Virus record (IMG/VR): IMGVR_UViG_3300027832_000014
Reading direction: 5' to 3' (one strand)
Source of the DNA: an uncultured virus (IMG/VR IMGVR_UViG_3300027832_000014)
Taxonomy: Duplodnaviria; Heunggongvirae; Uroviricota; Caudoviricetes
Length of the DNA stretch: 64,000 nucleotides
The notes under the pieces: generated by a model
Databases searched by the model: none
Told to the model about the DNA's origin: nothing
The model's input: only the letters and a program-made list of their open reading frames with translations
Program-made: the position numbers and the translations under genes
Shown here: positions 2,532 to 46,682 of the stretch, one piece after another
Layout of the letters: each line of letters starts with the position of its first letter
Position numbering within the stretch: the first letter of the stretch is position 1

Positions 2532-5117
2532 TTAAGCAGCCTGTTTCTGATTGAACCAATCGTCACTGTAAAACTTGTCAACTTCGTTGAGATCGTACCA
2601 ACTACTACCCGCCTCCACTTCCACAAGAATTGGCACATCAAAAAACTTGTAGGAGCTCTGCAACATAATCTCCAGGATGTTTTCCAAGTATTCCTCGGCC
2701 TTGTTCTCAGGCAACCTAAAGGTCAAGTCATCGTGGATGTTAAGAACAGGCTGGTAACGTATGTCGCCAACCTTGCAAGCGTACTCGCTTAGCCGCGCCA
2801 TGGCATCCATAACCACGTCGGCGGCAGTGCCTTGCACTGGAGTGTTGATTGGCTGGTTCCTTTCCAACGGTCCGCGTCGGCGTCTACCAGTGAGGGTTTC
2901 CACGTAGAAGTTCTCAGCGTAGAACTTTCTGGTGTCTTCGTGCCAGCGGCGCACACCGGGGAACTGCTTCCAAAGCTCTTTTTGCAGCCACACAATTTGC
3001 TTCTCGTCTACCCCAAGGCTGTTGGCAATCCCTTTTGGCTGTGCACCAAAACAACTAGGGAACACAAACTCGTTCTTGCTACGTTGTCTCCAAATACCCT
3101 GCTCGGCCTTATCCAAGCTCTTCCAACGACCACCACCAATAAGACTAGAACACTGCGCTATAATTCTTTCCGCCCACTCCTTGTGAACGTCGTACCGTTC
3201 CCACAGTGCGGCCTTGAGCGCCTTGTCCTTGGCGCACAAACCAATCACGCGCCATTCAATTTGCCCGTAGTCCGCGGCAACAAACAGTTCACCGCTTGGC
3301 GCTACGATCTGGCTACGAATGTACTTGTCTTTATGCTTGGGGAAATTCTGCTCGTTTGGCTCCTTAGAAGTAAGACGTCCCGTCTCCGCGATGCAAGGAC
3401 TAAGAACCGGGTGTAACATGCCATCGTCGAACAGGTAGTCCCCACCTATGGCCAACCCGTCGACGTAGGTGGATTTCAGCTTGGTTGCTCCACGGAAGTC
3501 CAGCGCCAATTTAGCCAACGGGTGAGTCACCTTAGACAAAATGCCTTCATCCGCCTTAAACTTGCCGTTCACTTTAACGGAGCGCACACCAGCAAACTCA
3601 TACAACACCTTAGCTACGTCTTCGGGGCTACCCACGTTAAAATGTTTTCTGTACTTGGCCTCGTACTCGTCTACTTCCGGGAGGGACTTTATAGCTTTCT
3701 CCGCTTTCTTTATCTTCTTAGAGAGAAACTTTTGGTAGCGTACTACCTCACTCTGGTCAACGTGTAATCCGGCAAGTTGTGTAGCGGGCACCGTCTTGCA
3801 CCTGCGCAGCGCATCTTCGTACACTTCCACCAGTGATTGGTCTTCCAGCTTAGCTTGCTGTGTTAGATAGAGCTTATGTGTGTATTTAGTATCTCCCCCG
3901 TTGTAGGTGAGCACTTCAACCAACGGGGCTTGAATAAGGTTGGCGCGGTCGAGATTGCTAATTTCCTTAATTCTAAGTCCTAAGTTAATGGTACACAAAT
4001 CGTCCAAGCTAAACCCGCGCATCTGCTTGTTACGCTCGTCCAAGATGTATGCCTGCATAACCGTGTCTTGCCAATTCGCGGCCCAACAAATGTCGAACCC
4101 AAAGTAGTAACCCATATGTTCTAGTTCAAAAGGCAGGTTATGGGCAACCTTCTTTGTGGTGGTTTCTCTAAGGAATTTCTCTACTAAGGCGTACACCGCC
4201 TTCAGCCCTTTACGACTCCACTGACACTCCGGGTGTTCTAGCCCAATAGCAAGGGTGTTGCCGTAGGTACCAATAGCGATGCTAAGAAGTTTAGCGCCGT
4301 TGTTATAAGGGCGTAGCCCATGGCTTTCGATGTCGTAGGCGCAGGAATCTTCTACGGACATCTTCTTAAAGTGGCGTTCAATTGTTTTAAGATCAGAAGT
4401 TTCGTTCTTTCCAAAGACAATGTGTATGCCCTGTGCATAGTCCGCCTGCGAAAGAACTTCAGGTTTACCCAACTTGTTCTTTTTAGCCTTAAGTACAATG
4501 GCGCGGCCGCGATGCTTGGCGAGGTTGTCTGCTTCTGTGAAATACCGTTCTCCGGTGCGCTGAGACGCGCGTATATTGGCCAGCATGGTTTCCATGTCTT
4601 CCATAGGGAAGAACCAACAGTCGTGCCCGCCAATGTTAACCGGGATAAGCCTGTAAGAGAACAACTTAATGTCCGTAAGGCCCGTAGCCCACTTCATAGC
4701 AAGAAACCCAAGTCCGATAACAACCTTGGGCTTATGCAGGGCAATATCTTCTTCTACTTGTTTGCGGCAGCAGTTTATTTCTACTTCATTGGGTCGCCTG
4801 CCCTTGGGGGTATAATCCTTAGTTACAGAACCAAACCGCATATGCTGTATGTTCGCCGCACCAAAAATGCGTTTAAACTCGGACCCAGCGTCGCCAACCA
4901 AATGTCGGCCCTCGTCGTCCTGCTCCTCGGTAATACCCCCGTGTAGCACGTAGATTGGGGCGTTGTCGGCACCAGTAGACCCCATCTTTGGGGAGGTAAC
5001 CTTAGCTTTGTTCAAAGGGCAGGCGGCGCACCCCATTTCGTACAGGGTTTCCTTGCTTACCGAATCGGGCCTTCTCTTTGCCAGCTTCTTCTTTTCGTCC
5101 GCAATAAAAAAGCCCAT
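2532..5117 (-). CDS. Family A DNA polymerase with N-terminal uracil-DNA-glycosylase-like domain and 3'-5' exonuclease
   Basis: CAACPL and GRHLVGDAG (UDG family 4-like); YDIES, AHNLPFE, YNGGD (exonuclease); TGRLTS, ADYGQIE, NTPVQGTAAD, NIHDD (PolA). Confidence 0.93.
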   Translation of the reverse strand: MGFFIADEKKKLAKRRPDSVSKETLYEMGCAACPLNKAKVTSPKMGSTGADNAPIYVLHGGITEEQDDEGRHLVGDAGSEFKRIFGAANIQHMRFGSVTKDYTPKGRRPNEVEINCCRKQVEEDIALHKPKVVIGLGFLAMKWATGLTDIKLFSYRLIPVNIGGHDCWFFPMEDMETMLANIRASQRTGERYFTEADNLAKHRGRAIVLKAKKNKLGKPEVLSQADYAQGIHIVFGKNETSDLKTIERHFKKMSVEDSCAYDIESHGLRPYNNGAKLLSIAIGTYGNTLAIGLEHPECQWSRKGLKAVYALVEKFLRETTTKKVAHNLPFELEHMGYYFGFDICWAANWQDTVMQAYILDERNKQMRGFSLDDLCTINLGLRIKEISNLDRANLIQAPLVEVLTYNGGDTKYTHKLYLTQQAKLEDQSLVEVYEDALRRCKTVPATQLAGLHVDQSEVVRYQKFLSKKIKKAEKAIKSLPEVDEYEAKYRKHFNVGSPEDVAKVLYEFAGVRSVKVNGKFKADEGILSKVTHPLAKLALDFRGATKLKSTYVDGLAIGGDYLFDDGMLHPVLSPCIAETGRLTSKEPNEQNFPKHKDKYIRSQIVAPSGELFVAADYGQIEWRVIGLCAKDKALKAALWERYDVHKEWAERIIAQCSSLIGGGRWKSLDKAEQGIWRQRSKNEFVFPSCFGAQPKGIANSLGVDEKQIVWLQKELWKQFPGVRRWHEDTRKFYAENFYVETLTGRRRRGPLERNQPINTPVQGTAADVVMDAMARLSEYACKVGDIRYQPVLNIHDDLTFRLPENKAEEYLENILEIMLQSSYKFFDVPILVEVEAGSSWYDLNEVDKFYSDDWFNQKQAA

Positions 5118-6493: not shown

Positions 6494-7525
6494 TTACACT
6501 CCGGTTGGAAGGAATTCCCACGTCTTCTTATACGTGTGCAATTCCGATAGGTTACGTTGTTTTAGGAACTCATAACTTACAAGACGATTAACCACGCCTT
6601 CCCCGTTTAGAATACTGTTAAAAGAATCCTGTGCCGGGAAAGCAAAAATAATGCTTCTGTCTTTAATAACAAACCCCGGTTCATTTCGGTAACTGGAAGT
6701 ATGTATAAAACCTTGCTTTTGGAAAGTCATGTTCTTCTTGCGTAAAGTAGCCTGCACGTTAAGAAGCACACGGGTAATTAGTTTCATGCGGTCTCGGTAG
6801 TGGGTTTCCATACCAGTTACGGTAAAGCCATTGCTCTCAATGAAGTCCACGATAGCTTTCTTCTCGTGCCCCTTCATATTGAGAAAATGCTTTCCGCCCT
6901 TAATAGAGCCGCTCTTCTCGCTCATTGCTACCATGTTTGGGCTAACGGAATAATCAGGCACCCCGTCATTCATCTTGGGAAGAAGTATGTTACCAAACGC
7001 ACCAATGAGCATCCAAGACGTGCTGTCACACGTTTTCCACGGGTAGCGGTACATGAGTGGCAAACTGGTCAACCCCAACAGGTGCGTCGCTACGACAGGT
7101 TGACCAGCGCTATTAGCAATGTGGTCGTACACACGGTCGAGGAAAGCAACACGGCCCCGGCTGGAACGAATGGAGCTAGGTGAGATCCCTATGTAAGTGT
7201 ACCCCTTGCTGATGTACTTATCCAACCAACGAAGATCTTCTCCAGCATGGTAAACGGGCATACAGTGCAAACCCGCCGATTCCATAATAAGAAGATTTTC
7301 ATAACCAGCACGGGCGGACTCTTCCAGTTCCGTTGGTGTTGGCACCCTACCAAGGGCACCCGGCATCACGTCCAGGTTGATATAAGAGTTAAGTGCCAGC
7401 TCATTGTCCGTAACAAAGTCCACGTACTCCCAAAGATCTATGTAGCCACCGCTACGCCACACAGTAAAGGCCCCACTATCCAGCAGGATTTTTAGCGGAG
7501 GCCGGGTAAGGTGCGGCCTGCTCAT
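6494..7525 (-). CDS. DpdA-like DNA guanine transglycosylase (TGT fold)
   Basis: LLDSGAF, NLDVMP, PVYH, HLLG and DSTSW motifs; ATG 7525 overlaps the folE stop (ATGA). Confidence 0.75.
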   Translation of the reverse strand: MSRPHLTRPPLKILLDSGAFTVWRSGGYIDLWEYVDFVTDNELALNSYINLDVMPGALGRVPTPTELEESARAGYENLLIMESAGLHCMPVYHAGEDLRWLDKYISKGYTYIGISPSSIRSSRGRVAFLDRVYDHIANSAGQPVVATHLLGLTSLPLMYRYPWKTCDSTSWMLIGAFGNILLPKMNDGVPDYSVSPNMVAMSEKSGSIKGGKHFLNMKGHEKKAIVDFIESNGFTVTGMETHYRDRMKLITRVLLNVQATLRKKNMTFQKQGFIHTSSYRNEPGFVIKDRSIIFAFPAQDSFNSILNGEGVVNRLVSYEFLKQRNLSELHTYKKTWEFLPTGV

Positions 7526-8571
7526 TTGGGGAGCAGTGCTAGGAATTCTTGCCGGGTAGAAACGTTGTCCAAGAAGTAACCGGTCATCTTGGACGTGGTG
7601 GTGAGAACGCCTTGTACTTTGATGCCGCGCATTTCCATACACATATGTCTGCATTGGAGCATAACAGCCACACCATGGGGGTTGAGCACATCGCGCAGTG
7701 CTTCCGCGATCTGCACGGTGAGCCTTTCCTGCACTTGTAACCTCTTGGAAAACACATCCACCACACGGGCTAACTTGCTCAACCCAACAACACTTCCATT
7801 GGGAACATAAGCTATGTGCGCCACGCCAAAGAAGGGGGCGAAGTGATGCTCACAGTTATGTACCAACATACCGTTAGCAAAGAAGTTGGGGAAATCCGGC
7901 ACAGTCATGCACCAAACGTCTTCTCGCCAACGACCCTCTTCCACGCCGAGCACAGTATGGTCACCTTGTCCTCGATTTAGATAACAACCCAAAGACAGGG
8001 CGTCCCGTCTATCTTGGTATTTGGCCTTGTCGGTTTTCAACTTCGTACTTGTCCGGTAAAGAGATAACAGACTATCCCCCGAAGTTAGATGTTGCGCTTC
8101 CACCCATCCACGGTTGTAAGTAAGAAACCTGTGATCCGGTGTACATAAAACTGTGTCGTTGTCTGTGTACACGCGAACAAGTTTGGCGTTCTTCCTAGTC
8201 ACCCTAGGATTCTCACATTGTCGTAAATGCAACTGCATGGTTTGTTCGTCCACACAATACACCCAATCGCCAGTGGTCAACTGTGAGATTGGTATGAGAC
8301 CCTTCGGCGTCTCTACGAAAGTAGAGCCGACAACACACATGCTGTAAACGGGGATGTTGGTTTGGCAAACCATTTCGTCATAATTGGAACTGCCATCCTT
8401 GAACGCTTTAAGGATGTTTAAAGGATTGTGTTCGTAGCCACCAAGGTAATGCGTAAAGGCGCGAGCAAAACGTTCCGGGGTTTCTTGCAGCCCTTCCCGC
8501 TTAATGTCTTCACTGTCCGAAATACCCTTAAGGATATGGTGACAGGCTTTCTCAAAGTGCTCCGAGTTCAT
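7522..8571 (-). CDS. folE: GTP cyclohydrolase I interrupted by an intein
   Basis: REGLQETPER, CEHHFAPFFG, GLSKLAR, RLQVQERLT, HMCMEMRG. Confidence 0.95.
   Translation of the reverse strand: MNSEHFEKACHHILKGISDSEDIKREGLQETPERFARAFTHYLGGYEHNPLNILKAFKDGSSNYDEMVCQTNIPVYSMCVVGSTFVETPKGLIPISQLTTGDWVYCVDEQTMQLHLRQCENPRVTRKNAKLVRVYTDNDTVLCTPDHRFLTYNRGWVEAQHLTSGDSLLSLYRTSTKLKTDKAKYQDRRDALSLGCYLNRGQGDHTVLGVEEGRWREDVWCMTVPDFPNFFANGMLVHNCEHHFAPFFGVAHIAYVPNGSVVGLSKLARVVDVFSKRLQVQERLTVQIAEALRDVLNPHGVAVMLQCRHMCMEMRGIKVQGVLTTTSKMTGYFLDNVSTRQEFLALLPK
7855..8337 (-). mobile_element. Mini-intein (161 aa, no homing endonuclease) in FolE
   Basis: Starts CVVGSTFV, block B CTPDHRFLT, ends NFFANGMLVHN followed by extein Cys (CEHH). 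Removal gives a 188-aa FolE. Confidence 0.93.
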
Positions 8572-9441: not shown

Positions 9442-10560
9442 TTACTCGGCCATCAGGCCCTCTTCGCGCAGCTTCTTAATGATGCGCTTGATCCACCCGA
9501 GCTGGATAGCAATGGTGCTGGCCTTAACCTCGGCACCCTTCTTCTCCAGAATCTCGGTCATCTTTTCCTTGGTGATGTCCGGCTTCTTGGCGATAGCCGT
9601 AATCATAATGTCGGCCGTCGACGGGCCGCGCTTCTTCTTGGGGGCCTTCTCAGCCGGCGCAGCCTTCTCAGCCTTCTCAGCCTTCGGCGCAGGAGCAGCC
9701 TTGCCCTTGCCCTTCTTCTTGGGGGTCTCGGTCACCTCTTCAGTGACGACAGTCTCCTCAGCAGCAACCACCTTAGCCTTGCGAGGGCTCTTCTTGGGAG
9801 CAATCTTCTTGGGGGCAGCCTTCTTGGTAGCCATATTGGTATCCTCTTCCTCGTCTTCGTCCTCGTCGGACTGGTTGTCGTCTTCGTCCTCGTCTTCGTC
9901 TTCGTCCGCGTCTTCCTCGTCTTCGTCCGCGTCTTCGTCCGCGTCTTCCTCAGGCTCGGTCTTCTTCTTGTTCTTACCCTTTTTCTTTGGTGCCGGGGCC
10001 TCGTCTTCCTCTTCGTCTTCCTCGTCTTCGTCCGCGTCTTCCTCGTCTTCGTCCGCGTCTTCCTCGTCTTCGTCCGCGTCTTCGTCCGCGTCTTCGTCCG
10101 CGTCTTCCTCGTCTTCGTCTTCCTCGTCTTCCTCAGGCTCGGGCGTCTTCTTACCCTTACCCTTTTTCTTTGGTGCCGGGGCCTCGTCTTCCTCTTCGTC
10201 TTCCTCGTCTTCGTCCGCGTCTTCGTCCGCGTCTTCCTCGTCTTCGTCGTCTTCGTCCGCGTCTTCGTCCGCGTCTTCCTCGTCTTCGTCTTCCTCAGGT
10301 TCGGGCTTCTTCTTGCCCTTACCCTTGGTAGCGACAGGCTCGAACGCGGGGATAGCTTCCTCCTCCTTAACCGCTTCAACAGCGGCGGCGTGCCAGCTCT
10401 GCACCTCTTCGGGCAGGTCTTCGTAGTCGTCGTCCTCAACCCCCTCAAAGGCGCGACAAACTCGCTCAAGGAAAGGCTGGTCCTTTTCCTTCTGGCCCTG
10501 CACCTTTTGGCCAGTAGCCTTGAGAGCTTCCTTGCCAACCTTGCCAATTTCAACAGTCAT
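9442..10560 (-). CDS. Protein with Asp/Glu-rich repeats and a Lys/Ala-rich histone-H1-like C-terminus
   Basis: Good RBS (GGAGAAGAG); long D/E repeats punctuated by KKKGKGKK; basic tail. Confidence 0.8.
   Translation of the reverse strand: MTVEIGKVGKEALKATGQKVQGQKEKDQPFLERVCRAFEGVEDDDYEDLPEEVQSWHAAAVEAVKEEEAIPAFEPVATKGKGKKKPEPEEDEDEEDADEDADEDDEDEEDADEDADEDEEDEEEDEAPAPKKKGKGKKTPEPEEDEEDEDEEDADEDADEDADEDEEDADEDEEDADEDEEDEEEDEAPAPKKKGKNKKKTEPEEDADEDADEDEEDADEDEDEDEDDNQSDEDEDEEEDTNMATKKAAPKKIAPKKSPRKAKVVAAEETVVTEEVTETPKKKGKGKAAPAPKAEKAEKAAPAEKAPKKKRGPSTADIMITAIAKKPDITKEKMTEILEKKGAEVKASTIAIQLGWIKRIIKKLREEGLMAE
9845..10330. repeat. Tandem GACGCGGACGAA / GACGAGGAA repeats in three blocks, each led by a KGK-containing basic motif
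   Basis: Directly visible as tcttcgtccgcg and tcttcctcg iterations on the + strand. Confidence 0.95.
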
Positions 10561-16323: not shown

Positions 16324-17754
16324 TTAGTCCTCCTCGTCGTCCGGTTCATCCGATAGTTCTTTCAACATGTCAAAGTAATTGCTGCTAAGGCGCACGCTAT
16401 CCACCACAAATTGGCTTTGCGTATAGTTCTGGCTAACCAGAACGGTAAAGGAGTCCTGGTCCCCACGGGCAAGCTGTACCGTCACCCTAGCAAGCCCAAG
16501 CATCTTTTCCATCTTTGTCTGGTTGTAAATAACCACAATGTCCGCGGTAGCCATCTTGCTAAAGTCTTCCGCGATATTGCTCTCAGTCATTTCCTTGCGG
16601 CCGACGCCCTGCCGGTTGCCCTGACTAAAGGTAACCACGGCGGCATTACGCTCTTGCCCCAAGCCGCGTAGGTCGACGTACAACTTGCCAAGCGCGTCTC
16701 GCTTGTTATCGGAAGGCACTTCCATAATGTCAGCGTAGTCAAGGATAATTAGGTCGGGGATAAAGCCTTCCCTCTGTTCCAGGTTATCCAAGTAAGCGTT
16801 AAGCCCCTTAATGGTCAACTTGCCACTAGGGAAGCCTTTAACAATAATGTTCTTAATGCGGTAGCCAACTTGGTCTATCTTCTTAAGCAGCTTGGACTTA
16901 ATGTTGTCATCTTCAAACGTGTGCTGCGGGGTGCGGTCCACCGGCAACATGTCGACCAGCTTGCCTTTCTTAACTTCTAGTCTCGTAATGGAGATGTCTT
17001 CTTTGCGCTTGGCAACAGCAAACAAGTTCTGCACATAACGCTGTGCAATAGCTTCCGCACTCATTTCTAAACTAATGTGCAAGACCTTCTTGCGATTAAG
17101 CAAAGACTGCCTTCCAAGGTTTACCGCAAACTGTGTCTTCCCCCTCTTGGGCAGAGCCACAAAGACGAATAGGGTTTGTCTAGCGGGGCACACTTGGTAC
17201 TTGTCAAATTCAGGTATGCCTGTTGGGAATTCTAGTTCTTCGTCCAGCTTGTCCAAGAAAGACAAACTACGTGTGGTATCTATAAGGCGAATACCCGGTT
17301 CAAACAGATCCAGCTTTGTTTTCTGAGCCTTGGCTAGAATCTCATCCACGTCATCAATGGCGTCGCTTCCCATGCTGGCTAGCAGTTCCGCGGATTCAAG
17401 CACGGCCTGCATGGTTACTTGCGTCCTAATAAAGTTCTGCAAGCTGGACATCACGTACTCTTCGTTGATGTCCTTATGGGACTGCTCAACATTGAGAATG
17501 GTGTCACGGTACTGCTCTGCAATGTCTTCGTCGCTATGGTTAAGCTCGTTCTCAAACAAGTCCGCCAAATGGACAAAGCCGGGGGGCTTCCCGTAGGTGT
17601 CATAGTAATCACACAGAGTTTCCATCATGTCGGCGTAGTGCCCAATGAAAAGTTCAGGCTTAATGGTATTGCGTATGATGCCCGCTTGCTTTTCACTAGT
17701 TGCCAGCAACGCTAGGAGGTTTTCCTGCGATGCCTTCCCAAGACGTTTTGCCAT
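16324..17754 (-). CDS. DnaB-like replicative helicase
   Basis: PTGIPEFD, ALPKRGKT, ISLEMS, ILDYAD, SQGNR, AEDFSK. Confidence 0.9.
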   Translation of the reverse strand: MAKRLGKASQENLLALLATSEKQAGIIRNTIKPELFIGHYADMMETLCDYYDTYGKPPGFVHLADLFENELNHSDEDIAEQYRDTILNVEQSHKDINEEYVMSSLQNFIRTQVTMQAVLESAELLASMGSDAIDDVDEILAKAQKTKLDLFEPGIRLIDTTRSLSFLDKLDEELEFPTGIPEFDKYQVCPARQTLFVFVALPKRGKTQFAVNLGRQSLLNRKKVLHISLEMSAEAIAQRYVQNLFAVAKRKEDISITRLEVKKGKLVDMLPVDRTPQHTFEDDNIKSKLLKKIDQVGYRIKNIIVKGFPSGKLTIKGLNAYLDNLEQREGFIPDLIILDYADIMEVPSDNKRDALGKLYVDLRGLGQERNAAVVTFSQGNRQGVGRKEMTESNIAEDFSKMATADIVVIYNQTKMEKMLGLARVTVQLARGDQDSFTVLVSQNYTQSQFVVDSVRLSSNYFDMLKELSDEPDDEED

Positions 17755-18593
17755 TATGGGATGGCCGTGAACAAGTGCTGCTGAATGGTAAGTCGGGCAC
17801 CATACTCCATACAAAGCTCTGCGGTGCGTGCGTAGTTGCGCGCCGTGGCCTCACGGTCAATGTGTTCCCCCGACCAGCCGCTAACCACCTCGCTAGTGGG
17901 CGCGCTATGGTACACGGCAATGGGAGACAGCCACACACGCTCCATGGGGTTTATTTTGTATGCCAAGTCTTTCCCCCAAGCCGGGATATCGTAGTACGGG
18001 CTTTCCGGGTCTGCACTAATAAGGAACTTAAACACGTCTCCGAAGGTTTTCATCCTATCTGCAATTTTGGGAACCGGTTTCTTTGCAGAATCGTACTTCT
18101 TCAACTTCTCAGCAGCTTTAGGCGAAACCACAATAGTCACTCTGCTCCCGGACATGCGCACCAACCACTCCGGCATATAGGTGCCGTTGGTTTCCAGTTG
18201 GATCTCGTACCCTTCCGCCTTCAATGCCCTAAATAGATTTTCCATGGGAATGTCGGGTTGCAGGAGGGGCTCCCCTCCGGTAAGGATAACCAGCTTGCTT
18301 TTGGTACCGCTTTGCACAATCTCTAACAGATCAAGCGGCGCGTATAACAGCGATTTGTTTATGGAGAAGTCTGTGTCACAAAAAGTGCAGCCGGGGCCAG
18401 CCTTTGTGCCCTTGCCCCCAAAGTTGCAACCACCAAAGCGAATGAAGAAAGCGGGCCTGCCCGCAAAAGGTCCTTCTCCCTGTAAGGTATCAAAGTGCGT
18501 GCGAACCAGAAGTTTACCTTCCTCAAAGAACTTCTTTTGAAAAGCCCCCTTACCATAACTGGTGTCCACGTTTACCGGATTGTATTTCGTCAT
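17754..18593 (-). CDS. queE: 7-carboxy-7-deazaguanine synthase (radical SAM)
   Basis: TLQGEG, FIRFGGCN...CTFCDT, TGGEP, ETNGT, VSPK, QQH. Confidence 0.93.
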   Translation of the reverse strand: MTKYNPVNVDTSYGKGAFQKKFFEEGKLLVRTHFDTLQGEGPFAGRPAFFIRFGGCNFGGKGTKAGPGCTFCDTDFSINKSLLYAPLDLLEIVQSGTKSKLVILTGGEPLLQPDIPMENLFRALKAEGYEIQLETNGTYMPEWLVRMSGSRVTIVVSPKAAEKLKKYDSAKKPVPKIADRMKTFGDVFKFLISADPESPYYDIPAWGKDLAYKINPMERVWLSPIAVYHSAPTSEVVSGWSGEHIDREATARNYARTAELCMEYGARLTIQQHLFTAIP

Positions 18594-19919: not shown

Positions 19920-20231
19920 AAGAGCTCCCTTTGTTATAGGCTTTCAAGGCGAAAAGGCCCTTAGCGAAGTCGGGGCCTGGACTTCTTGGTAATCACCTTT
20001 TTGGTGTCTTTTGGTTTCTTGTCTTTCTTTTTGGGATTAGCTAGCAGAAAGTCTGGTATGTCAAACACAGGGTCTGCCGGGTCATAGGGGCCACAATGTA
20101 GCCAGTACTTGTGTGATGAGTTGTTTTGCACTTTACCCCCAACTGTTAAAGACATGCGAGCGCTACTGTAGCCCAACCCCATTGAAAGGGGTAGGCAGTC
20201 CCTCGCAAAAACATTTCTTGTATGTCAGCGT

Positions 20232-20717
20232 TTAAAGGTACGGCGTTAAGTCCGTAGTGTCGTCTCTCTCCAACTTGAATCCGTACTCCCCAAAATAACG
20301 AAGCATCCTGTTGGCCGCACTACGGGCACCATCTTTGCGTCGGTACATGGTGCTGACGAGCATGGGATTCTGTACTTTCAGAACGGCAACCCGCACTACA
20401 CTGTTGCTCCGAACGAACATCGCTTCGGACTTGTGGAACATAACAAAGAAAAACTTGTCTTTCTGCTTACTAAGTAGCAGGTCCCATGTGTACTCCCCCT
20501 GAAAGCATTCACTGGTTACATTAGTGAAAGCTGTTTCTACTTGTTGGTGCGTAACCCCTGGAAAGAAGAAAAAACCGAGCGGCTTTCCGTTGGTACCAAC
20601 CAGCTTGGCGTTCCCCCTGTTATGCGCGCCTAGTTCTTCCATTGGCTTCCAAATAACACGGTTGCGATGCAAGGTGAATTCTTTGTTACATTCCTGTACC
20701 ATTTGTACGCGCTCCAC
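20232..20717 (-). CDS. Hypothetical protein
   Basis: 161-aa ORF co-oriented with its neighbours. Confidence 0.55.
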   Translation of the reverse strand: MERVQMVQECNKEFTLHRNRVIWKPMEELGAHNRGNAKLVGTNGKPLGFFFFPGVTHQQVETAFTNVTSECFQGEYTWDLLLSKQKDKFFFVMFHKSEAMFVRSNSVVRVAVLKVQNPMLVSTMYRRKDGARSAANRMLRYFGEYGFKLERDDTTDLTPYL

Positions 20718-20731
20718 TTTGTTTGAAGAAA

Positions 20732-21004
20732 TTAAGAAGTGCCTTTTGTTTCCATCAGTAGGGACGTATATTGACTGTTTCCGTTCTCCACGTTCAAAGC
20801 TACTATCTCCATGGCCATCGCAGGGGTCATGTATCTTTGGTCCTGCAAAGCTACCAGCTTACCAACAATGTTGGAAGCTATAGCTAACATTTCTTCTGCG
20901 GTTACATCTGCTTGGCGTTTGTGTAGCAAACCCAACAAATCCTGGAAAGCTACTTCTTGCGCGGGTTTGGCCAATTTGGACCGTACTCTTGGTTTGTTAC
21001 TCAC
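20732..21004 (-). CDS. Hypothetical phage protein
   Basis: RBS GGAGGAG; LAIASNIVGKLVALQDQR motif. Confidence 0.65.
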   Translation of the reverse strand: MSNKPRVRSKLAKPAQEVAFQDLLGLLHKRQADVTAEEMLAIASNIVGKLVALQDQRYMTPAMAMEIVALNVENGNSQYTSLLMETKGTS

Positions 21005-21224
21005 GGAGCACTCCTCCTACGTTCTCGTCTGAGTTGTTGTTGTAGTACAGGCTGGGACGTCTATCGTCCGAGAAGATATCATAGTTGCTTTCGCATGTGC
21101 GATTGCTCTGGTATTGGTTGCATTCGGGGTCGAGGTACTCGTTAATACCTACACCAAGCACAACACCAATGACAATAACGATTATGGAGAGAATCATGTT
21201 CTTTCTTCCGCTAGTTGTGGTGGA

Positions 21225-22016
21225 TCACGGATGGCCTATGCGCGTCTTATTCACTGTCCGAATTAACTCTGGTACGGAGCAGGAACTGACAGCGTCCGCA
21301 CTAAGCTGCTTAAGCCACGGCATAGCGCTCAAATTGTCTTGGACGTTAAGCATCTCAGAAAGACGTGTAAACCTGCCATGTAGGAAAGCGGCGCTTAACG
21401 CCCGGTGGTACTCTTCCGGGGTTTCACCTGTGCCTACGGCGGGAGGGTCGCTTGGCTTGCAGCGCATGGCCAAAGTAGATAAAGAAGTAACCAACATGGG
21501 AGAAGCGCCCACCGACCAGTTAACTATGTAGACGTGCTTTAAAGAAGAAAGCGCTATGGCACCGTGATACTGGCACAAACCAGAATTGCCCAAAGTTAGT
21601 TGGGCGGGCTCCCAACCACGATTATGTTTTGTTTGGTCTTTGTAGAATTGTAGGCGATGGCCCCCCAAAGTAAAATTACGGCTGTCCGAGTCTTCTACAC
21701 CATCAAAACCCCGTGTAGCTTTTTCCATGGAAGTTGGATCAAAAGAGAAAAAAGAACCCCGCAACGTTTTGGCACTAATGGCTACAAGACAAGAGGATGT
21801 GCCCGCCCTCATAAACTTCTTTGCATAGTACAGAGGGTACTTGCTTATAAGAAGCAAAGGACTGTTTTGTTCTCCCACGCCTTCTACTCGTTCTGGCAAC
21901 CGATGGCCAATTAACAATTTGTTATCCAAAATATTCATAAGGTGTTTATAAGAGCAGGCCGCGTACAACACCTTGGGAAAATCGTCTGGCAGTTTGTTGT
22001 GATGTTTAGTGTCCAT
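21225..22016 (-). CDS. Hypothetical protein
   Basis: 263-aa ORF. Confidence 0.6.
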   Translation of the reverse strand: MDTKHHNKLPDDFPKVLYAACSYKHLMNILDNKLLIGHRLPERVEGVGEQNSPLLLISKYPLYYAKKFMRAGTSSCLVAISAKTLRGSFFSFDPTSMEKATRGFDGVEDSDSRNFTLGGHRLQFYKDQTKHNRGWEPAQLTLGNSGLCQYHGAIALSSLKHVYIVNWSVGASPMLVTSLSTLAMRCKPSDPPAVGTGETPEEYHRALSAAFLHGRFTRLSEMLNVQDNLSAMPWLKQLSADAVSSCSVPELIRTVNKTRIGHP

Positions 22017-22178
22017 GGTTGCCCCCCTGCAATGCCCTTAGCATTCGTTGTTGATCTTCTTCCAGCATAACCTGCTTATCTTCAAGCAGACGTGGTCTTC
22101 TATTGGAAGCGCACCAAGCACAGTGTTCCTCATTGTAACTGTCCCACGCATGTTTGCAGGTAATGCAAAGCCAATGTT

Positions 22179-22385
22179 TCATCGCCCAACGGCCACTTTC
22201 AGTTTTAGATAAGCGTCCTTGTCTTCGTGGGTAACACAGCTCTTTATTTCGGGGTAGATATGGGTACCACATTCTGGGCAATGATTAGGCAATCTAGGAT
22301 TAACCCAACAAAGTTGTGTGTTGCAGCATGGAGTCTGCAACAAACGGAATTTTACCCGCTCTGTTGTAGTTGCCATGATAACCAC
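22179..22385 (-). CDS. Small Zn-ribbon protein
   Basis: PCCNTQLCWVNPRLPNHCPECG. Confidence 0.6.
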   Translation of the reverse strand: MVIMATTTERVKFRLLQTPCCNTQLCWVNPRLPNHCPECGTHIYPEIKSCVTHEDKDAYLKLKVAVGR

Positions 22386-22475
22386 TATGCCCCTCTTATT
22401 GTTAGTCTAAACAGTAACTTAACATACCCCTAACGTGGTATGTTCTAAATGGCTATTACCAGCCATTATTTATCT

Positions 22476-22481
22476 TATAAT
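22476..22481 (+). promoter_or_regulatory. TATAAT -10-like box upstream of the structured RNA
   Basis: Consensus hexamer in an AT-rich tract; no clear -35 element. Confidence 0.35.
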
Positions 22482-22489
22482 ATGAGAGT

Positions 22490-23305
22490 AGATATAGCTA
22501 TGCCCTTTCTGGCCTACATGGCGGGCTTACGCTTCTCTTCGCTAGCGCAGCTTATCACGTAGTGGCAAGTGGAATAGATGCTGGCACTTCTACGAGAAGT
22601 AGGCATCTAACAGGATAAAACCTGTAATAGAGCTTCTTTTTCCACTCTTAAGCCAACCCAAGCACTTCTTGGGGCACCATACTCGGTTCCTCCACCCGTA
22701 GGTGGCAGCGGGCTATCTGTTTCACCCGGCTGTCTGGCATCAATAAGGCCACATCGTTTTACATCCGTGACCAGTGTTGCTCTTGCTAGAAACTCTATAG
22801 GCCAGAAACAAGAGCAACACCATGTAGATGTTTAGGCTAAGTAGGCACCACGTTGTCAGGGGCACGACAGAGCGTGGATTTGTTTTAGCTACTGGTTTTA
22901 GGAGGATGACCGGGCAGGATAATGAAAGTGTGGAGAATTGCTGGCTTGTCTTAGCTACCGCGGGCGGGGCTACTGGTCTCTCTTGGAGGAGCACGATGCG
23001 CCGTGAAGTCGCATAGTTAAGACCAGTACCACTAACGCGCCTCGGTGCGTTTGGGCCAACAACATCTACCTTGGGTGCCGGTGTCATCGGGGGAGTAGTG
23101 ATGAATCCGGCGGGAGGTTGTGCATCACACAAACCAAAGTAGAAACACTCATGGGCATAAGTGCCCCACACTTTCATTATCCTGCACGATCTGCTCCCAA
23201 GCGGGAACCAAGTGTAACCGTGGGCAGTACTTCCTTGTCTGCTTGCGCAGGGCGGCCACTAGCCATAACCGCCATGGGGCAAAGGTAAGCCCGCAACAGG
23301 GCCGG
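22490..23305 (+). ncRNA. Candidate large structured ncRNA (~800 nt)
   Basis: Nested helices 22521-30/23285-94, 22560-66/23255-61, 22914-33/23166-85 (20 bp), 22774-85/22809-20, 22971-79/23020-28, 22575-81/22603-09. G-U pairs favour the + strand. Confidence 0.7.
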
Positions 23306-23501
23306 TGCAATCCTTCGCCCGCAATTATTTGTCATAGGGTTGTTATACCCCCCGCAAAGGTGTGTTTGCTTGCATTTTAAGGCCCGTAGGGGTCGTGTCG
23401 GCGACCGGGGCAGTACCAGCGGCCCGGTTTTGTCGCCGACCGCACTGGCGGGCGTTTTTTGTGCAAGGACACATTAAGCACATCCTAGCTTGGTTAACAG
23501 G

Positions 23502-23858
23502 TTACTTCTTGCGGGAGCATTTGTGTGCAACAAAAACTTCTTCAAACGATTGGTAAGCTTCTTTCTTTGGGTCCAATGCGTCCAGGTCTAACGCACCCAG
23601 CCGGGAACCTACTTGCATAATGTCATTTAATTTATTCTCGTTACGAAGGACGGTCATGACACCAGCACATTGCTGCGGACGATCACCGGCACTGTGTGTT
23701 TCTTCCCCGTCTTCGCCGCTACCGTAATACACAGTCTTGTGGCATTGGAAAGCGGTGGCAGTAAAGATTTCCTCCAGGCGCTCTTGCGCAAACCAAAAGA
23801 CTTCTCCCTTGCCCTTTCTAAACGGGCAATTTGTGCATGGCCTCTTTAAATCAAACAT
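23502..23858 (-). CDS. Cys-rich hypothetical phage protein
   Basis: PCTNCPFR...FQCHKT...QQCAG. Confidence 0.7.
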   Translation of the reverse strand: MFDLKRPCTNCPFRKGKGEVFWFAQERLEEIFTATAFQCHKTVYYGSGEDGEETHSAGDRPQQCAGVMTVLRNENKLNDIMQVGSRLGALDLDALDPKKEAYQSFEEVFVAHKCSRKK

Positions 23859-24392
23859 CCTGTGAACCTTCTCGTTTTACAAACCGTCGTGGGGGTTGTC
23901 GCTCAGGCTAAAGGCTTTATCTACAACACCCATAAGACCACCTAACAGGGCAATAGCGGGTGCGACTAGCAAATACAGCGACTCATCAGCCAGCGCCGCC
24001 GCTAAGATCGCGGGAATCCATACAATAAAAGACATAGTTAGCGCAAAGACGGCCCCAATTGTAAACGCTTCTACGTAGGTTACATGGGGCGTATGGTCTT
24101 CCATTACTAATGGCCTTTTCGGTTTCTGGTTAATTCTCAGCAAGAACCCACTGCCAGTGTTTCTTCCAGCGACATCGCCTGACCATCTTGCAGAAATGGT
24201 AATCAATTAAAATTGAATCCAGTTCGTATATTTCGTTGAAAAGTGACTCAGAGAAGCCATTCTTCTCCTGACGCTCGATGGCTTCATCACGCCACGAGCG
24301 AATTGTGTCTTCGATCTTGTCTCGAAACAACCAACCAAACATCTCTTTCTTTCCCATAGTTTTAACAAGGGTATGGTGCGCTTTTGTGGTAG

Positions 24393-24770
24393 TTAAACAA
24401 AAGGAGGAAAGCGCAGGTGTACCTTGTCGTCTGTTTCTTCGTCGGGCAGGATGTCGACCAAACGCCCGCGCCGCTTGTAGGGTACATATATGGTGCCCCC
24501 CGAGACTTGGGTAGCTTCTTCGGCGCACAGAAGCGCTTGCTCTGTGCCGCTGACATAGTAGTCCCTTCGAAAGATACCACTTCGCGTAACACGCCACGAG
24601 ATCTCCAACTCGTGTACATACTTTATTTCTTTCAGTATGTTTCTGATGGTGTGCCTAAGCAAAAACCCGCCACGGAGAACAACATCTCCGTAGGCGGGCT
24701 CTAGTGGGGGTTGGCGATTCCTCTTGCGTGTATATTCTGCAAAGAGGGGTTCCTGTTTTATGCGAGACAC
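24393..24770 (-). CDS. Hypothetical protein
   Basis: RBS AGGAG; 125 aa. Confidence 0.5.
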   Translation of the reverse strand: MSRIKQEPLFAEYTRKRNRQPPLEPAYGDVVLRGGFLLRHTIRNILKEIKYVHELEISWRVTRSGIFRRDYYVSGTEQALLCAEEATQVSGGTIYVPYKRRGRLVDILPDEETDDKVHLRFPPFV

Positions 24771-25641: not shown

Positions 25642-26187
25642 TTATTCTCCTTCCCAAGCATTCATTAAAAACAAACGTGTTTCGGATAATTCAATGAAGT
25701 TGTTTGCGACCCGCCGAAGGTCGTCGCTTGCCATGGGAGGGTTGGTCGCCACGGTACTTACAACGGTGACCCGCACGCCTCGCCGTTGTGCAGCTTGTAC
25801 CACTGGCACGAAGTCCCCGTCGCCCGTCATAAGCACCACATGGTCGCAATGGGCGCAGCTTTCCAGCACGCCGACCGCCATGTCTACGTCCATGTTGCCT
25901 TTGATACGGTCAACCCCGTCATTGGTGTACCGCTTGGCTTCTCGGGTAACCAAGGTGTACCCATTGAAAGATAGCCAGTCCAGTAGTGGTACCAGCGCAT
26001 TGTGCTCGTCGCCGGTATCCAACACGGCGGTGTAGTAGTAAGCAGACACCAGTCGGCAGTTGCCTTGGAAGTAGGTTAGCACCTTCTTCCAGTCCATGCT
26101 GCACCTAAGTGCCTTAGCCGAGGCAGACACATTAGCGCCGTCCACGAACAACATGGTGCGTTCATCTTTATAAAACATTGTGGTCAT
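25642..26187 (-). CDS. NYN-domain (LabA/DUF88) protein
   Basis: LFVDGAN, AYYYTA, PLLDWL, KGNMDVDMAV, TGDGDF. Confidence 0.9.
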   Translation of the reverse strand: MTTMFYKDERTMLFVDGANVSASAKALRCSMDWKKVLTYFQGNCRLVSAYYYTAVLDTGDEHNALVPLLDWLSFNGYTLVTREAKRYTNDGVDRIKGNMDVDMAVGVLESCAHCDHVVLMTGDGDFVPVVQAAQRRGVRVTVVSTVATNPPMASDDLRRVANNFIELSETRLFLMNAWEGE

Positions 26188-26427: not shown

Positions 26428-26512
26428 TGGTACCCGCAGGGGGACTCGAACCCCCACGACATGTGTCAATGGATTTTAAGTCCACTGCGTCTACCAATTC
26501 CGCCATGCGGGC
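26428..26512 (-). tRNA. tRNA-Leu (anticodon UAA)
   Basis: GCCCGCATGGCGGAATTGGTAGACGC...CTTAAAA loop, long variable arm, GGTTCGAGTCC, encoded CCA. Confidence 0.93.
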
Positions 26513-28611: not shown

Positions 28612-28689
28612 TGGTGGTCCCGGTAAGACTCGAACCTACAACCGAACTGTTATGAGCAGTTAGCTACTAACCAATTGAGCTACGGGACC
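28612..28689 (-). tRNA. tRNA with CAU anticodon, probably Ile2 (elongator Met not excluded)
   Basis: GGTCCCGTAGCTCAATTGGTTAG...AACTG-CTCATAA-CAGTT...GGTTCGAGTC...ACCA; one extra base in the D stem. Confidence 0.85.
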
Positions 28690-29409: not shown

Positions 29410-30105
29410 TCAGGCAATCCATCCGCGCGCTTTGGCGATGGCCTCGATCAGTGAGACCTTGGCGATACACTCAGAACGAAGGATGGGATCGTCGGCATGA
29501 GCGGCATCCCAATGCACCTTGGCTTCGTCGAGGGTGAACCAGCGACAGCCAGCGGCGATCATCGGCCCGGTGTCGTGCTGCACGGCAACGAATCGATAGC
29601 CGCGAGCGTCCTTCCCGGCGTCGATGATGGAATTACTGTGCAGGTTGGCACCATTCAGGTTGGCGCCGATCAGGTTGGCACCACTCAGGTCGGCACCACT
29701 CAGGTCGACGTAGAGCAGGTCGGCGCGCGAAAGGTTGGCATCGCTCAGGTGGGCACCATTCAGGTCGGCACAGATCAGGTTGGCACCACTCAGGTCGGCA
29801 CAGATCAGGTTGGCACAGATCAGGTTGGCGGCGCGCAGGTAGGCATCGCTCAGGTAGGCGCCGATCAGGTCGGCACAGATCAGGTTGGCCCCACTCAGGT
29901 CGGCACAGATCAGGTTGGCGCGCGAAAGGTTGGCGCGCGAAAGGTTGGCACAGCGCATGTCGGCGGCGCGCAGGTAGGCATCGCTCAGGTAGGCAAAGCG
30001 CAGATCGGCGCCGCTTTCGACTGCAAGCATCACGCATCGGCGCAGGTCATCGGTATCGGCCTCGAACAGGACCGCCTCAGTGAGAATGTGTTTGATCTGG
30101 TACAT
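29410..30105 (-). CDS. Pentapeptide-repeat protein
   Basis: More than 20 A(D/N)Lxx repeats; C-terminal AGCRWFTLDEAKVHW. Confidence 0.93.
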   Translation of the reverse strand: MYQIKHILTEAVLFEADTDDLRRCVMLAVESGADLRFAYLSDAYLRAADMRCANLSRANLSRANLICADLSGANLICADLIGAYLSDAYLRAANLICANLICADLSGANLICADLNGAHLSDANLSRADLLYVDLSGADLSGANLIGANLNGANLHSNSIIDAGKDARGYRFVAVQHDTGPMIAAGCRWFTLDEAKVHWDAAHADDPILRSECIAKVSLIEAIAKARGWIA

Positions 30106-38498: not shown

Positions 38499-38577
38499 TG
38501 TAGTATCTCCTCCAATAGTTGCAGTGACACAAGATAAAGTGTCTAAAGGGCGGGGCTGTTACACCCCACCCAAATTC

Positions 38578-40386: not shown

Positions 40387-41300
40387 TGTAATGTACTCCT
40401 CCAGTTAGTTGCAGTGACACAAGATAAAGTGTCTAAAGAATCTATAAAAGAAAGGGACGCTAAGGTTTCCCCTAGCGTCCCTCACTTTGTGCAGGACATG
40501 AAGGTGCTGTTACGCGGCCTTCTGTTCGGCAACCTCGGCCTTCAGGTCGACGGGCTTGGTCACGAGGTCAAACCCATTGCTTCATCAACGAGTTTCTTAG
40601 GGATCAACCAGTCTCGGGTCAAGTTTGTGACCTTGATGTCTGGCTCCTCTTTAAGAACTGTCTTGACAAATACCTTGCCTGCATTTTCCATTTCCTTGAC
40701 AGTAGGGTGACGCGCACCTTTGGGAAGGGTAGCCATACCTTCCTTGGTCCACGGCTTGCCAGTATCGCCGTCAATGCCGTCGTTCCAATACCATTTCCCC
40801 TTGAGAGGAAATACGACGAAACTCAGGAAATGTTTCCACTTCCTAGCACCGCCGTTAGAGATGGCATCGACCATAGCCCCGTCAGGGGTACGGAACGTAC
40901 CAAAGCCGGGAATATTCGTATCGCGAGATGCTTTGAGTTTCTTAGGCTGAACCAGCTTCTTAGCCTTGCTAGCGATAGTCATTTTCTTGTCCTTGTTTTG
41001 TTTCATTGTAATGTACTCCTCCAGTTAGTTGCAGTGACACAAGATAAAGTGTCTAAAGAATCTATAAAAGAAAGGGACGCTAAGGTTTCCCCTAGCGTCC
41101 CTCACTTTGTGCAGGACATGAAGGTGCTGTTACGCGGCCTTCTGTTCGGCAACCTCGGCCTTCTTGGCGCGGGCCTTCTTGGGAGCCGCCTTCTTCTCCG
41201 CCTTCAGGTCGACGGGCTTGGCGTCTTCCGCCTTGGCCACCTTGTAGCGCATCCGACCCATCTTCTCGTCGCGCTTGGCCACGAGGTCAAACCCGTTGCG
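40374..41300. repeat. Direct duplication: 40374-40543 identical to 40994-41163, continuing with two deletions
   Basis: 170-bp identity read directly from the sequence. Confidence 0.95.
40560..41006 (-). CDS. Hypothetical protein
   Basis: Follows a leader repeat. Confidence 0.7.
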   Translation of the reverse strand: MKQNKDKKMTIASKAKKLVQPKKLKASRDTNIPGFGTFRTPDGAMVDAISNGGARKWKHFLSFVVFPLKGKWYWNDGIDGDTGKPWTKEGMATLPKGARHPTVKEMENAGKVFVKTVLKEEPDIKVTNLTRDWLIPKKLVDEAMGLTS

Positions 41301-41587: not shown

Positions 41588-41724
41588 AGCAAAAACGCTC
41601 TTTGGGATAGAAAAGATCACAAGATGTATTTCTCACCTTCTTGGGTAGTTACTCCTCCAGGTAGTTGCAGTGACACAAGATAAAGTGTCTAAAGAAGGTG
41701 GGGTAACACCTACCTTCTAATGTA

Positions 41725-44788: not shown

Positions 44789-46271
44789 GGTTGTATTTCT
44801 ACTTTCAACGATTGGTTGCCATGTTACATTCAAAGTACCTAAAGGGTTTTGGGGGTAACGACCGATTTCTGCGTAGAGGTAGCTGGTTTGGACGCTTTAC
44901 TACCGCGCATACTTTCTATTTTGTTGTTGCTTGTTAAGAAGTTACCCCGTTTGCCCAATTATTTCAGAACGGTGCCACCCACCCGGTAAATTATATCTAG
45001 CTTCACCGGGCCTGCCTTGGCGAATTAGAAACCAAGACAGTATGGCGGTAATGCCGAATGGCACCGCCCCACTGCTTATTTGGAGGAGGAGATTTTACTA
45101 TGGGGGCTGCCCTACTTGATTCTCCATTGTAGCCAACTACTGCGACTTTATGCTGCACTAAGTAGATATTTGGGGCCTAACCCCTGCTTACCTGACTACG
45201 ACGTGCGCCGCATGGCTGGTATTGCCCGCTAGGGGCAACTTACGAATGAATAACAAGGTACTGTATGCCCTTGCACCCTGGATGGGCCGCTTCTTAACCT
45301 TACCAGCTTGCTTGCTTGCCGCTTGTAGAATGGGCGAAGGGCGTAGTAAAGTCTTAGCGGGGCCGCTTTGCTAACGGACCGATGGCACTAGGGCTGCGGC
45401 ACATGCTGTTAGGAATACCCCGGCACTTACGATGATTCCAAAGGGGCTTTTTTAGGTTACCCCTTGTGAAACCAACTGGCTTCTCTCTTCCACCCCACCT
45501 TTTACCGTGGGCTTTGCGACTGTGCGGCTGCATGGTGGAACTTTGGACGGCCACCTGCACCCATTTTCGCCTTATTATGAACGCTTTGTTATGGGGTAGC
45601 TGCCCCCAGCCGACCGACTTAACAGCCGCTATTTAAAGTAGACACACACACACAACCTACATAATAACATAACCAGCGCCACAACATAGCTCTGCAACTA
45701 TTATTTGCCTCCGATGGGTATAAACGGGTTCAGGCACTTCTCGTATTATCCGCTATATACCCCTATGGTCCAGCTTCACCGGGCGTACCTGTCTGTTCTT
45801 GCTAGATCGTTAGATAGATAGATGCTCAAAGACACACAGTTCCATAGAATAATGAACTTCACACACACACATACCTGTATAAGGAAACTCGAACTTCTTT
45901 GTTCTTTTTTTAAAATTATCCGTTTTTATGGGTAAAACACTTCTTTTTTGACCAAAAAACAAGAAGGATGGACTTTTTCACTATATACGCCCATAGAATT
46001 AGTTTCAGTGAAGTTCGAGTCGCATTGCTAATATTCCAACCTCCCCCATCGCAAGAACCACGATACTCGAACTTCCTTTTATATATAGATCAAAGAATAT
46101 CGAACTTCGCAGGGTTTACCACAAGAACCACGATACTCGAACTTCCCCACGGAGAGATAGTGTAGAAGAAGTTCAACAGAAACTACCCTTGCAAGATACG
46201 TTCGAGTTTCTCGGCCCGGTACACAAAAAAAAAGGAGGCGAGGCCCGTAGGCCCCGCCCCCCTTCTTTCAA

Positions 46272-46682
46272 CTAGGCCCTGTGGGCGTTGGTCGAGTGCT
46301 TGCCCGCCTTGCCCTTGGTGGCCTCGCCATCGATGCTGTACAGTACCGCGCCGTGCTCGTTACGGGTGGTCGTGGTGCTGAACCCTGCCGCCCGCGCCTT
46401 GGCCAGCAACTTGGCGATGTTCGCGTAGTGCCCACCGGCCAAGTTGTTCAACGCCGCCTGCGTGGCGGGGTTGTTGTGAATGTGCGCCGCCACCATGGCG
46501 GGCACACTGTTGACACGGAAGCCGAACGGGCAGCGCGCCCCTTCAGTAACAAGCGCATACTTCCACTTTCCGCCGGAAGCCTGCCCCACGGTGAAGTGGA
46601 CCAAGGGCAGGGCGTTGGGGTTAACCAGCGCCTTGCGAGCGGCCGAAGTAGCAGCAGCCTTGGTAGCGTAAAGAGTCTTCAT
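46272..46682 (-). CDS. Basic Ala-rich protein, paralog A
   Basis: RBS GGAG, downstream terminator; highly similar to 48613-49083. Confidence 0.85.
   Translation of the reverse strand: MKTLYATKAAATSAARKALVNPNALPLVHFTVGQASGGKWKYALVTEGARCPFGFRVNSVPAMVAAHIHNNPATQAALNNLAGGHYANIAKLLAKARAAGFSTTTTRNEHGAVLYSIDGEATKGKAGKHSTNAHRA

Follow-up and report, generated by a model that had tools for sequence, protein, structure and literature searches.

A strongly folded, non-coding gap in a minus-strand gene block of an uncultured freshwater phage is a candidate RNA gene outside the catalogued families

Bacteria and phages rarely have large RNAs with intricate folds, and each new example widens the set that is available for study; to our knowledge, the few that are known (GOLLD, ROOL, OLE, and raiA) still have no clear function. 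In the portion of the literature that is drawn on here, the large RNAs ROOL and GOLLD are said to be located often near tRNAs and in prophages (PMC5737381). The present analysis concerns a 1.1-kilobase (kb) gap free of open reading frames (ORFs), which lies between minus-strand genes in a 64,000-nucleotide (nt) stretch of DNA from an uncultured freshwater phage (IMG/VR record IMGVR_UViG_3300027832_000014); this whole stretch is referred to as the window. An earlier note, made from the sequence alone, had proposed that the gap gives rise to an RNA of about 800 nt, transcribed in the direction opposite to that of the flanking genes. The candidate resembles ROOL and GOLLD in that it is a multibranched non-coding element of hundreds of nt that is carried by a phage, but the gap has no similarity to the covariance model of either RNA, even at an expectation value (E) of ≤10, and the candidate has no family of homologues and hence no consensus structure with which theirs could be compared. 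With respect to the proximity to tRNAs that the same source reports for ROOL and GOLLD, the resemblance is a loose one, as the nearest tRNAs, which are encoded on the same strand, are not adjacent but ~3 and ~5 kb upstream.

A second point of comparison is provided by the substrates of RNase III, an enzyme that processes the stems of pre-rRNA and the intergenic sites of the early mRNA of phage T7. RNase III needs roughly two helical turns of duplex, and its T7 sites are hairpins of ~50–60 nt. Like these stalks, in which a long near-perfect duplex flanks a folded RNA or lies between cistrons, the gap contains a long predicted duplex, and this is near-perfect over the ~20 base pairs (bp) looked for in such a stalk; its 22-bp helix, together with a 5-bp outer stem, exceeds the length that RNase III needs. 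Unlike the stalk in the gap, the T7 sites have no large domain within them; each is a short hairpin with internal loops.

The folding models point to a real, strongly structured, non-coding element in the gap that matches no catalogued family and that remains a candidate RNA gene. The account of it that we favor, tentatively and at somewhat less than an even chance, is that the gap encodes a structured non-coding RNA that is read from the minus strand, within an operon transcript. The structure of the gap is beyond chance, as determined from comparisons with shuffled sequences (20 shuffles for segments of 971 and 805 nt and 200 for a 290-nt domain and its 228-nt interior). For positions 22490–23460 (971 nt), the minus-strand fold has a free energy of −389.5 kcal/mol compared with −321.1 ± 4.8 kcal/mol for the shuffles, of which 0/20 were as good; the z-scores (z) are −14.3 for the minus strand and −3.2 for the plus strand. 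The segment 22521–23325 (805 nt) gives −327.5 kcal/mol (z −7.8) on the minus strand and −309.1 kcal/mol (z −4.6) on the plus strand, and the 290-nt domain (22905–23194) gives −129.9 (z −9.5) and −121.4 kcal/mol (z −5.0), respectively, with neither value being reached by any of the 200 shuffles. The fold thus beats shuffled sequences on both strands in the comparison that the earlier note had proposed, unlike two controls of equal length, an ORF-poor stretch at 44900–45870 (z −1.4 minus and +0.4 plus) and a DnaB coding sequence at 16500–17470 (z −0.4 minus). When segments of 300 nt were scanned from 20000 to 24649, the 22 that lie outside the gap were never below z −2.4 on either strand, and those inside it ranged from −0.8 to −4.3.

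As far as the tests reach, the gap is non-coding, and the earlier judgment that it holds no convincing ORF proved correct. There are 12–22 stop codons in each of the six frames, and the longest ORF (145 amino acids, 22740–23177, minus strand) has a flat G+C content over its three codon positions (0.51/0.51/0.51), whereas five real genes of the window show a clear dip at the second position. This ORF has no match in Pfam or PHROG, and in a search of 5.8 billion proteins its sole match was its own entry, in which the start is placed two codons further in. The protein-homology scan of the gap covered 11 ORFs of 34–145 amino acids, and the 10 smaller ones have no Pfam match at E ≤ 1. Two ways in which a gene might be concealed were considered and rejected. 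In the case of recoded stop codons, no frame opens, and all three kinds of stop are present in every frame; in the case of a split gene with an intron, no intron model matches, and the 118-amino acid gene upstream is full length. The latter gene is complete, its homologues being ORFs of 104–139 amino acids, and so does not represent one exon of a split gene.

A search of the whole window with Rfam 15 (4227 models) at the gathering score returned two tRNAs only, a search of 22200–23700 with the same models at E ≤ 10 gave no match, and ARAGORN found no tmRNA in the window. As far as such models see, GOLLD, ROOL, OLE, HEARO, raiA, RNase P, tmRNA, group I and group II introns, and small self-cleaving ribozymes are excluded, in agreement with the earlier impression that hallmarks of RNase P, tmRNA, and introns are absent. 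A CsrB-like GGA sponge was also considered for the plus strand and was rejected, with 13 GGA triplets present versus 13.8 expected per 1116 nt.

The core of the predicted structure is a helix that the earlier note had described as a perfect one of 20 bp (22914–22933 with 23166–23185), and this description is accurate at all 20 pairs; the helix lies within a 26-nt inverted repeat of 92%. The 20-mer occurs at only these two places in the window (0.01 expected), and no other inverted repeat within 1.5 kb is as long as this one anywhere in the 64 kb. The helix is lengthened on the minus strand from 20 to 22 bp and is followed, past a bulge of one nucleotide, by the 5-bp outer stem; each extension uses one G-U pair on the minus strand, and the same positions are C-A mismatches on the plus strand. 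Its interior is made up of a hairpin (23146–23163), a branched subdomain (23065–23143), and a 127-nt subdomain (22937–23063). Two other helices had been proposed to act over a longer range. The first, a terminal helix (22521–22530 with 23285–23294), is indeed complementary at 10/10 bp and is present in the minimum free energy (MFE) and centroid structures of both strands, and the second, of 7 bp (22560–22566 with 23255–23261), is seen in the plus-strand fold, but each, taken alone, is at the level of chance, with ~0.6 and ~37 such matches, respectively, expected among the ~6 × 10^5 position pairs of 1.1 kb. A closed architecture is therefore plausible, without independent support.

Two further features of the minus-strand fold were observed. 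The tail that follows the long helix (22880–22900) repeats motifs of the 3′ strand of the interior (22944–22981), CCAGUAGC and GUAGCUAAxACAA each being present twice, and it is able to pair with 23018–23028 in place of the interior partner, at 10/11 bp; these repeats suggest a possible alternative conformation or pseudoknot. In addition, there are four C-rich stretches that resemble anti-Shine-Dalgarno sequences (22895–22906, 22980–22992, 23085–23097, and 23109–23120; motifs CCUCCU, CUCCUCC, CUCCCCC, and CCUCCC), three of which are inside the core domain and are predicted to be single-stranded in the minus-strand fold, the fourth being directly after the long helix. The number of CCTCC motifs, 3 versus ~0.8 expected per 1116 nt, is statistically weak.

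Because most of the strong helices are purely Watson-Crick and are common to both strands, the question of which strand is folded needs what remains beyond the long helices. When the long helix is left out, the 228-nt interior has a z of −4.8 on the minus strand (0/200 shuffles as good) and −1.0 on the plus strand (36/200). Between 22676 and 23325, each of the five core segments favors the minus strand relative to shuffles; the long hairpin (22757–22835) has z values of −5.2 and −3.6 for minus and plus, respectively, and the segment 22560–22660 shows no strand preference (−3.5 and −3.6). A strand-swap shuffle test was run because z can be biased by base composition. Among composition-matched shuffles, the plus strand, with its higher content of G and U, is the more stable by ~12.5 kcal/mol, but in three nested segments the native difference between MFE(−) and MFE(+) is −5.5, −10.6, and −18.7 kcal/mol, values that were reached by 0/150, 0/100, and 0/25 shuffles, respectively; for the 228-nt interior, the test gives a z of −3.6, with 0/150 shuffles reaching the native value. 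The predicted ensemble is the better defined one on the minus strand, where it has a mean base-pair distance of 128 versus 203 on the plus strand and a positional entropy of 0.56 versus 0.88.

The pairs of high confidence (probability ≥0.9, 22521–23325) number 157 on the minus strand, including 11 G-U pairs, and 129 on the plus strand, including 5, which is contrary to the view in the earlier note that G-U pairs favor the plus strand. Its orientation of the RNA opposite to the flanking genes likewise finds no support, as both the core segments and the strand-swap test favor the minus strand. According to these models the fold prefers the minus strand, on which the flanking genes also lie, and the RNA is probably on that strand; a general lesson is that the strand of such a candidate is not readable from promoter- and terminator-like motifs alone.

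In the reading that we favor, the RNA would be transcribed as part of a polycistronic transcript that runs from the 118-amino acid gene into small zinc-ribbon genes. Co-transcription with the operon is suggested because no minus-strand terminator-like site is found at either border of the gap in a scan of 21800–24200; the sole minus-strand hit in that range lies inside the gap, where it coincides with the apical hairpin of the core domain. The core would be the 290-nt domain, in which the 22-bp helix and the 5-bp outer stem beyond the bulge enclose the three-branch interior of ~228 nt, and the hairpin domains that flank it on both sides could be closed with it into a unit of ~775 nt. By analogy with pre-rRNA stalks and T7 intergenic sites, the long near-perfect duplex may be a processing stalk that is cut by an RNase specific for double strands, for example an RNase III of the host, and this cleavage would both set free the folded interior, as a stable RNA of ~230–280 nt, and separate the upstream and downstream mRNAs. 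As a guess, the released RNA might affect the RNA metabolism of the host or the phage, as is suspected of GOLLD and ROOL. If correct, this would mean that a structured RNA is embedded in a phage operon and is probably freed by duplex cleavage and not made from its own promoter. A more doubtful proposition is that the element stands for a new class of large phage RNA, namely a compact, multibranched RNA of ~230–280 nt, possibly within a ~775-nt assembly, that is excised by its stalk from an operon transcript, is unrelated to catalogued families, and acts in trans on RNA metabolism; exposed loops of the CCUCC type, resembling anti-Shine-Dalgarno sequences, would be a possible route for such action.

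Several observations weigh against an operon-borne minus-strand RNA. No homologue has been found, all of the evidence is thermodynamic and derives from one sequence, and the z values of the longest segments are built on just 20–25 shuffles. An old RNA helix would not usually run for 20 bp free of wobble pairs and mismatches, and this one could be the product of a recent inverted duplication or of selection at the DNA level. The two end segments are slightly better on the plus strand (22386–22520, z −2.6 versus −2.0; 23326–23475, which includes the terminator-like hairpin, −3.8 versus −3.2), and the G-U counts over the whole MFE structures of the two strands are equal (36/362 versus 34/360). 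The region is also bracketed by a canonical plus-strand terminator and a weak plus-strand hairpin with a T-rich tail (22448–22467), an arrangement that fits a plus-strand transcription unit; the minus-strand model gives the former no role other than that of blocking antisense transcription. Transcription of both strands is possible. At present, the element has the status of a single-sequence prediction in an uncultured phage, the value of which hinges on relatives or transcripts.

These signals are the basis of an unlikely alternative, that the gap specifies an independent plus-strand non-coding RNA of ~970 nt, which starts after the TATAAT hexamer, ends at the terminator at 23460, and is antisense to the operon. 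The hairpins and T run near 23397–23460 that the earlier note had described are present, as a hairpin and then T6 at 23433–23460 on the plus strand; the G+C-rich stem (23433–23451) is directly followed by the U run (tail GCGTTTTTTG), as is required of an intrinsic terminator. In the minus orientation of 23382–23460, an A6 run precedes the hairpin and there is no U run after it, so that the signal works in the plus orientation only. To judge from its sequence, this looks like a working plus-strand terminator because the minus-strand terminators elsewhere in the phage, for example those at 30584–30555 and ~40470, are canonical. The TATAAT that had been noted upstream is indeed present at the other end, but it has no usable −35 box and fails the criteria of the promoter scan; the two promoter-like sites in the region are at chance level (3.1 ± 1.7 in shuffles). 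The weak T-tailed hairpin at 22448–22467 is just upstream and could insulate the unit, the plus-strand folds of the 971-, 805-, and 290-nt segments beat shuffles overall, and the closed multidomain architecture is found in both the MFE and centroid structures of the plus strand. However, most of that signal comes from Watson-Crick helices that are common to both strands, and on the plus strand the interior alone folds no better than its shuffles do (z −1.0, 36/200); the strand-swap test rejects the plus strand, which also has fewer confident pairs and fewer G-U pairs.

A serious rival, although an unlikely one, is that the gap contains cis-acting elements of the minus-strand mRNA and gives no discrete stable RNA, its hairpins being RNase III sites, structures that stabilize 3′ ends, or a structured leader that controls the translation of the downstream zinc-ribbon genes. 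This shares with the favored reading the strand of the genes and the lack of an intervening minus-strand terminator, and it would account for the hairpins that are directly before the ribosome-binding site of the gene starting at 22385, for exposed CCUCC-like motifs that could pair with ribosome-binding sites of the GGAGG type, and for the only modest structure of the 300-nt segments inside the gap. On the other hand, 1.1 kb is very long for an intergenic regulatory region in a phage, and gene spacing elsewhere in the block is tight; also, a multibranched interior of 228 nt with a z of −4.8, held in a long helix, resembles a folded product and not a cleavage site.

Homologues were sought as a source of covariation, as the earlier note had advised, but only identical copies were found and these provide no alignment. 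A blastn search in distant mode with the gap against 50,697 phage records gave no match. The nearest virus record is 100% identical over 1301/1301 bases, and the close records, which are two IMG/VR contigs and metagenome sources, are 100% identical across the region; four DNA runs gave identical contigs with no variants and no joints, and none of the runs on record is of RNA. Four genes of the block were compared with IMG/VR: the 118-amino acid gene has 15 loci (2 identical and 13 at 53–59%), a 263-amino acid neighbor gene has 2, both identical, the NYN gene has 7 (2 identical), and PolA has 3 (2 identical and 1 at 28%). In JGI metagenomes, the 118-amino acid gene has 41 loci, of which 2 are identical and the other full-length ones are at ≤62%. 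Searches with the gap by blastn and nhmmer against 13 of these loci, and then against all 60 non-identical loci, gave nothing at E < 0.1, the best E in a BLAST search of 13 whole virus records was 0.07, and 0/60 loci share a second neighbor gene with the window, so that synteny is absent. Covariance models of 100 and 127 nt, each built from a single sequence, find themselves in the window, which served as a positive control, but detect nothing in 19 virus records and no second copy in the window, where the gap sequence as such also has none.

Pattern scans were in accord with this. In IMG/VR, an 18-mer of the helix arm and a pattern that kept the loop conserved but left the stems free were each found in the same two identical records only, and a 17-mer of a hairpin loop was found in these and in a 22-nt identity within the coding sequence of an unrelated A+T-rich phage, the flanks of which have no similarity. 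The 18-mer arm gave 14 single-arm hits, all in unrelated genes, among one genome per GTDB species, compared with ~17 expected by chance. From these comparisons, the phage is a singleton in the collections searched.

The orphan status of the sequence and of its neighboring genes, and the lack of any evidence of conservation, would fit a non-functional spacer, that is, a decayed gene or a recent inverted duplication with incidental stability, and a single recent inverted duplication could by itself make the 20-bp helix. This is quite improbable in our estimate. The strand-specific structure signal persists when the long helix is omitted, several independent segments each beat shuffles, and the 11 ORFs tested include no remnant of protein homology. 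Phage genomes rarely retain 1.1 kb of junk, which also counts against this reading.

A DNA-level element, whether it served as an origin of replication or in recombination or packaging, or was left behind by a small mobile element with terminal inverted repeats, would suit the perfect, wobble-free 20-bp repeat, the greater length of this repeat than of any other inverted one within 1.5 kb in the 64 kb, and the placement of the gap in a block with replication genes (DnaB, SNF2 helicase, and PolA), but it is highly improbable, since strand symmetry would be expected and yet the fold is strongly strand-biased; inverted repeats are present as in a miniature inverted-repeat transposable element (MITE) or other small mobile element, but there is no target-site duplication flanking them and no further copy of the arm in the window, the arm recurring in IMG/VR in the two identical records only and among GTDB species in unrelated coding contexts at the chance frequency; the cumulative GC skew has no turn at 22–23 kb; and iteron-like tandem repeats, a more typical origin signature, are located elsewhere (49017–49108 and 49427–49564).

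Coordinates of the gap, its flanking genes, and the predicted features within it
Feature	Positions	Strand	Basis
ORF-free gap, whole candidate region	22386–23501	none	ORF list, stops (all three kinds) in all frames, flat codon-position G+C
Largest predicted fold unit, closed by 10-bp helix	22521–23294 (~775 nt)	−	z of 22521–23325
Predicted core domain, long closing helix and three-branch interior	22905–23194 (290 nt)	−	z, 200 shuffles
3′ arm of long helix (minus strand), pairs with 23164–23191	22908–22935	−	inverted repeat, minus-strand fold
5′ arm of long helix (minus strand)	23164–23191	−	inverted repeat, minus-strand fold
Interior of long helix	22936–23163 (228 nt)	−	z, strand-swap test
Long hairpin, stem of 12 bp perfect or 15 bp with G-U on minus strand (22773–22787 with 22807–22821)	22761–22831	−	fold, z
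Three-branch local domain	22563–22655	−	z of 22560–22660, equal on both strands
Three-tier G+C-rich hairpin then T6, resembling an intrinsic terminator	23382–23460	+	motif scan, fold
TATAAT hexamer	22476–22481	+	sequence; no matching −35 box, absent from promoter-scan output
Weak promoter-like site, CCGACA, 16 nt, TAAAAT; 9/12 matches	23374–23401	−	promoter scan
Upstream gene, 118 amino acids, DUF6283-like (phrog_5443)	23502–23858	−	family match
Downstream gene, 68 amino acids, Cys-rich (zinc-ribbon-like), GTG start, GAGGGG 4 nt upstream	22179–22385	−	translation, sequence

From position 1 to ~41 kb of the window, nearly all genes are on the minus strand. They encode a family-A DNA polymerase (PolA), a sliding-clamp-like protein, a GTP cyclohydrolase I that bears an intein, a radical-SAM enzyme, an SNF2 helicase, a DnaB-type helicase, and an NYN-domain protein, and there are two tRNA genes. 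The 68-amino acid Cys-rich protein encoded directly downstream of the gap has no family match in Pfam or PHROG. The NYN-domain gene, of the ribonuclease type (25642–26187, minus), lies upstream of the structured gap, at a distance of 2.2 kb and with the same orientation, and tRNA-Leu(UAA) and tRNA-Met are near it, at 26428–26512 and 28612–28689; this gene and the two tRNAs may form an RNA-related module.

Other genes of the block have unusual features. The GTP cyclohydrolase I gene (7522–8571, minus) is split by the intein, with a splicing domain at residues 95–239 between the two halves of the enzyme. A radical-SAM gene at 17754–18593 accompanies it, and the pair suggests, from the sequences, a pathway to 7-deazaguanine of the queuosine type. 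The polymerase gene (2532–5117, minus) encodes a family-A DNA polymerase, the N-terminal part of which weakly matches the uracil-DNA-glycosylase superfamily (residues 65–151, E 5.8e-6). Two genes are rich in repeats (9442–10560 and 29410–30105, minus), one with a long acidic run that arises from repeats of 9–12 nt and the other encoding a pentapeptide-repeat protein with a period of 15 nt in its DNA.

Repeated elements are also present elsewhere in the window. A 29-nt element that holds a small inverted repeat is found in four identical copies on the minus strand (38518–38546, 40408–40436, 41028–41056, and 41664–41692), upstream of minus-strand genes. In the one copy that was read in its context, near 40.4 kb, a canonical terminator precedes the element and GGAGGAG and an ATG follow it, and the element probably functions as a promoter or operator, specific to the phage, that is joined to a leader; those copies that are at 40374 and 40994 are within 184-nt units that are 97% alike. 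A motif of ~25 nt (…GATACTCGAACTTC…) is present five times over 1.8 kb at 46052–47902, where there are few long ORFs. The iteron-like tandem repeats near 49 kb, which consist of six 20-nt units (CCTAGCGCCGCCAAGCGCCA) and three 43-nt units, are in an ORF-poor stretch and are a candidate origin or packaging region.

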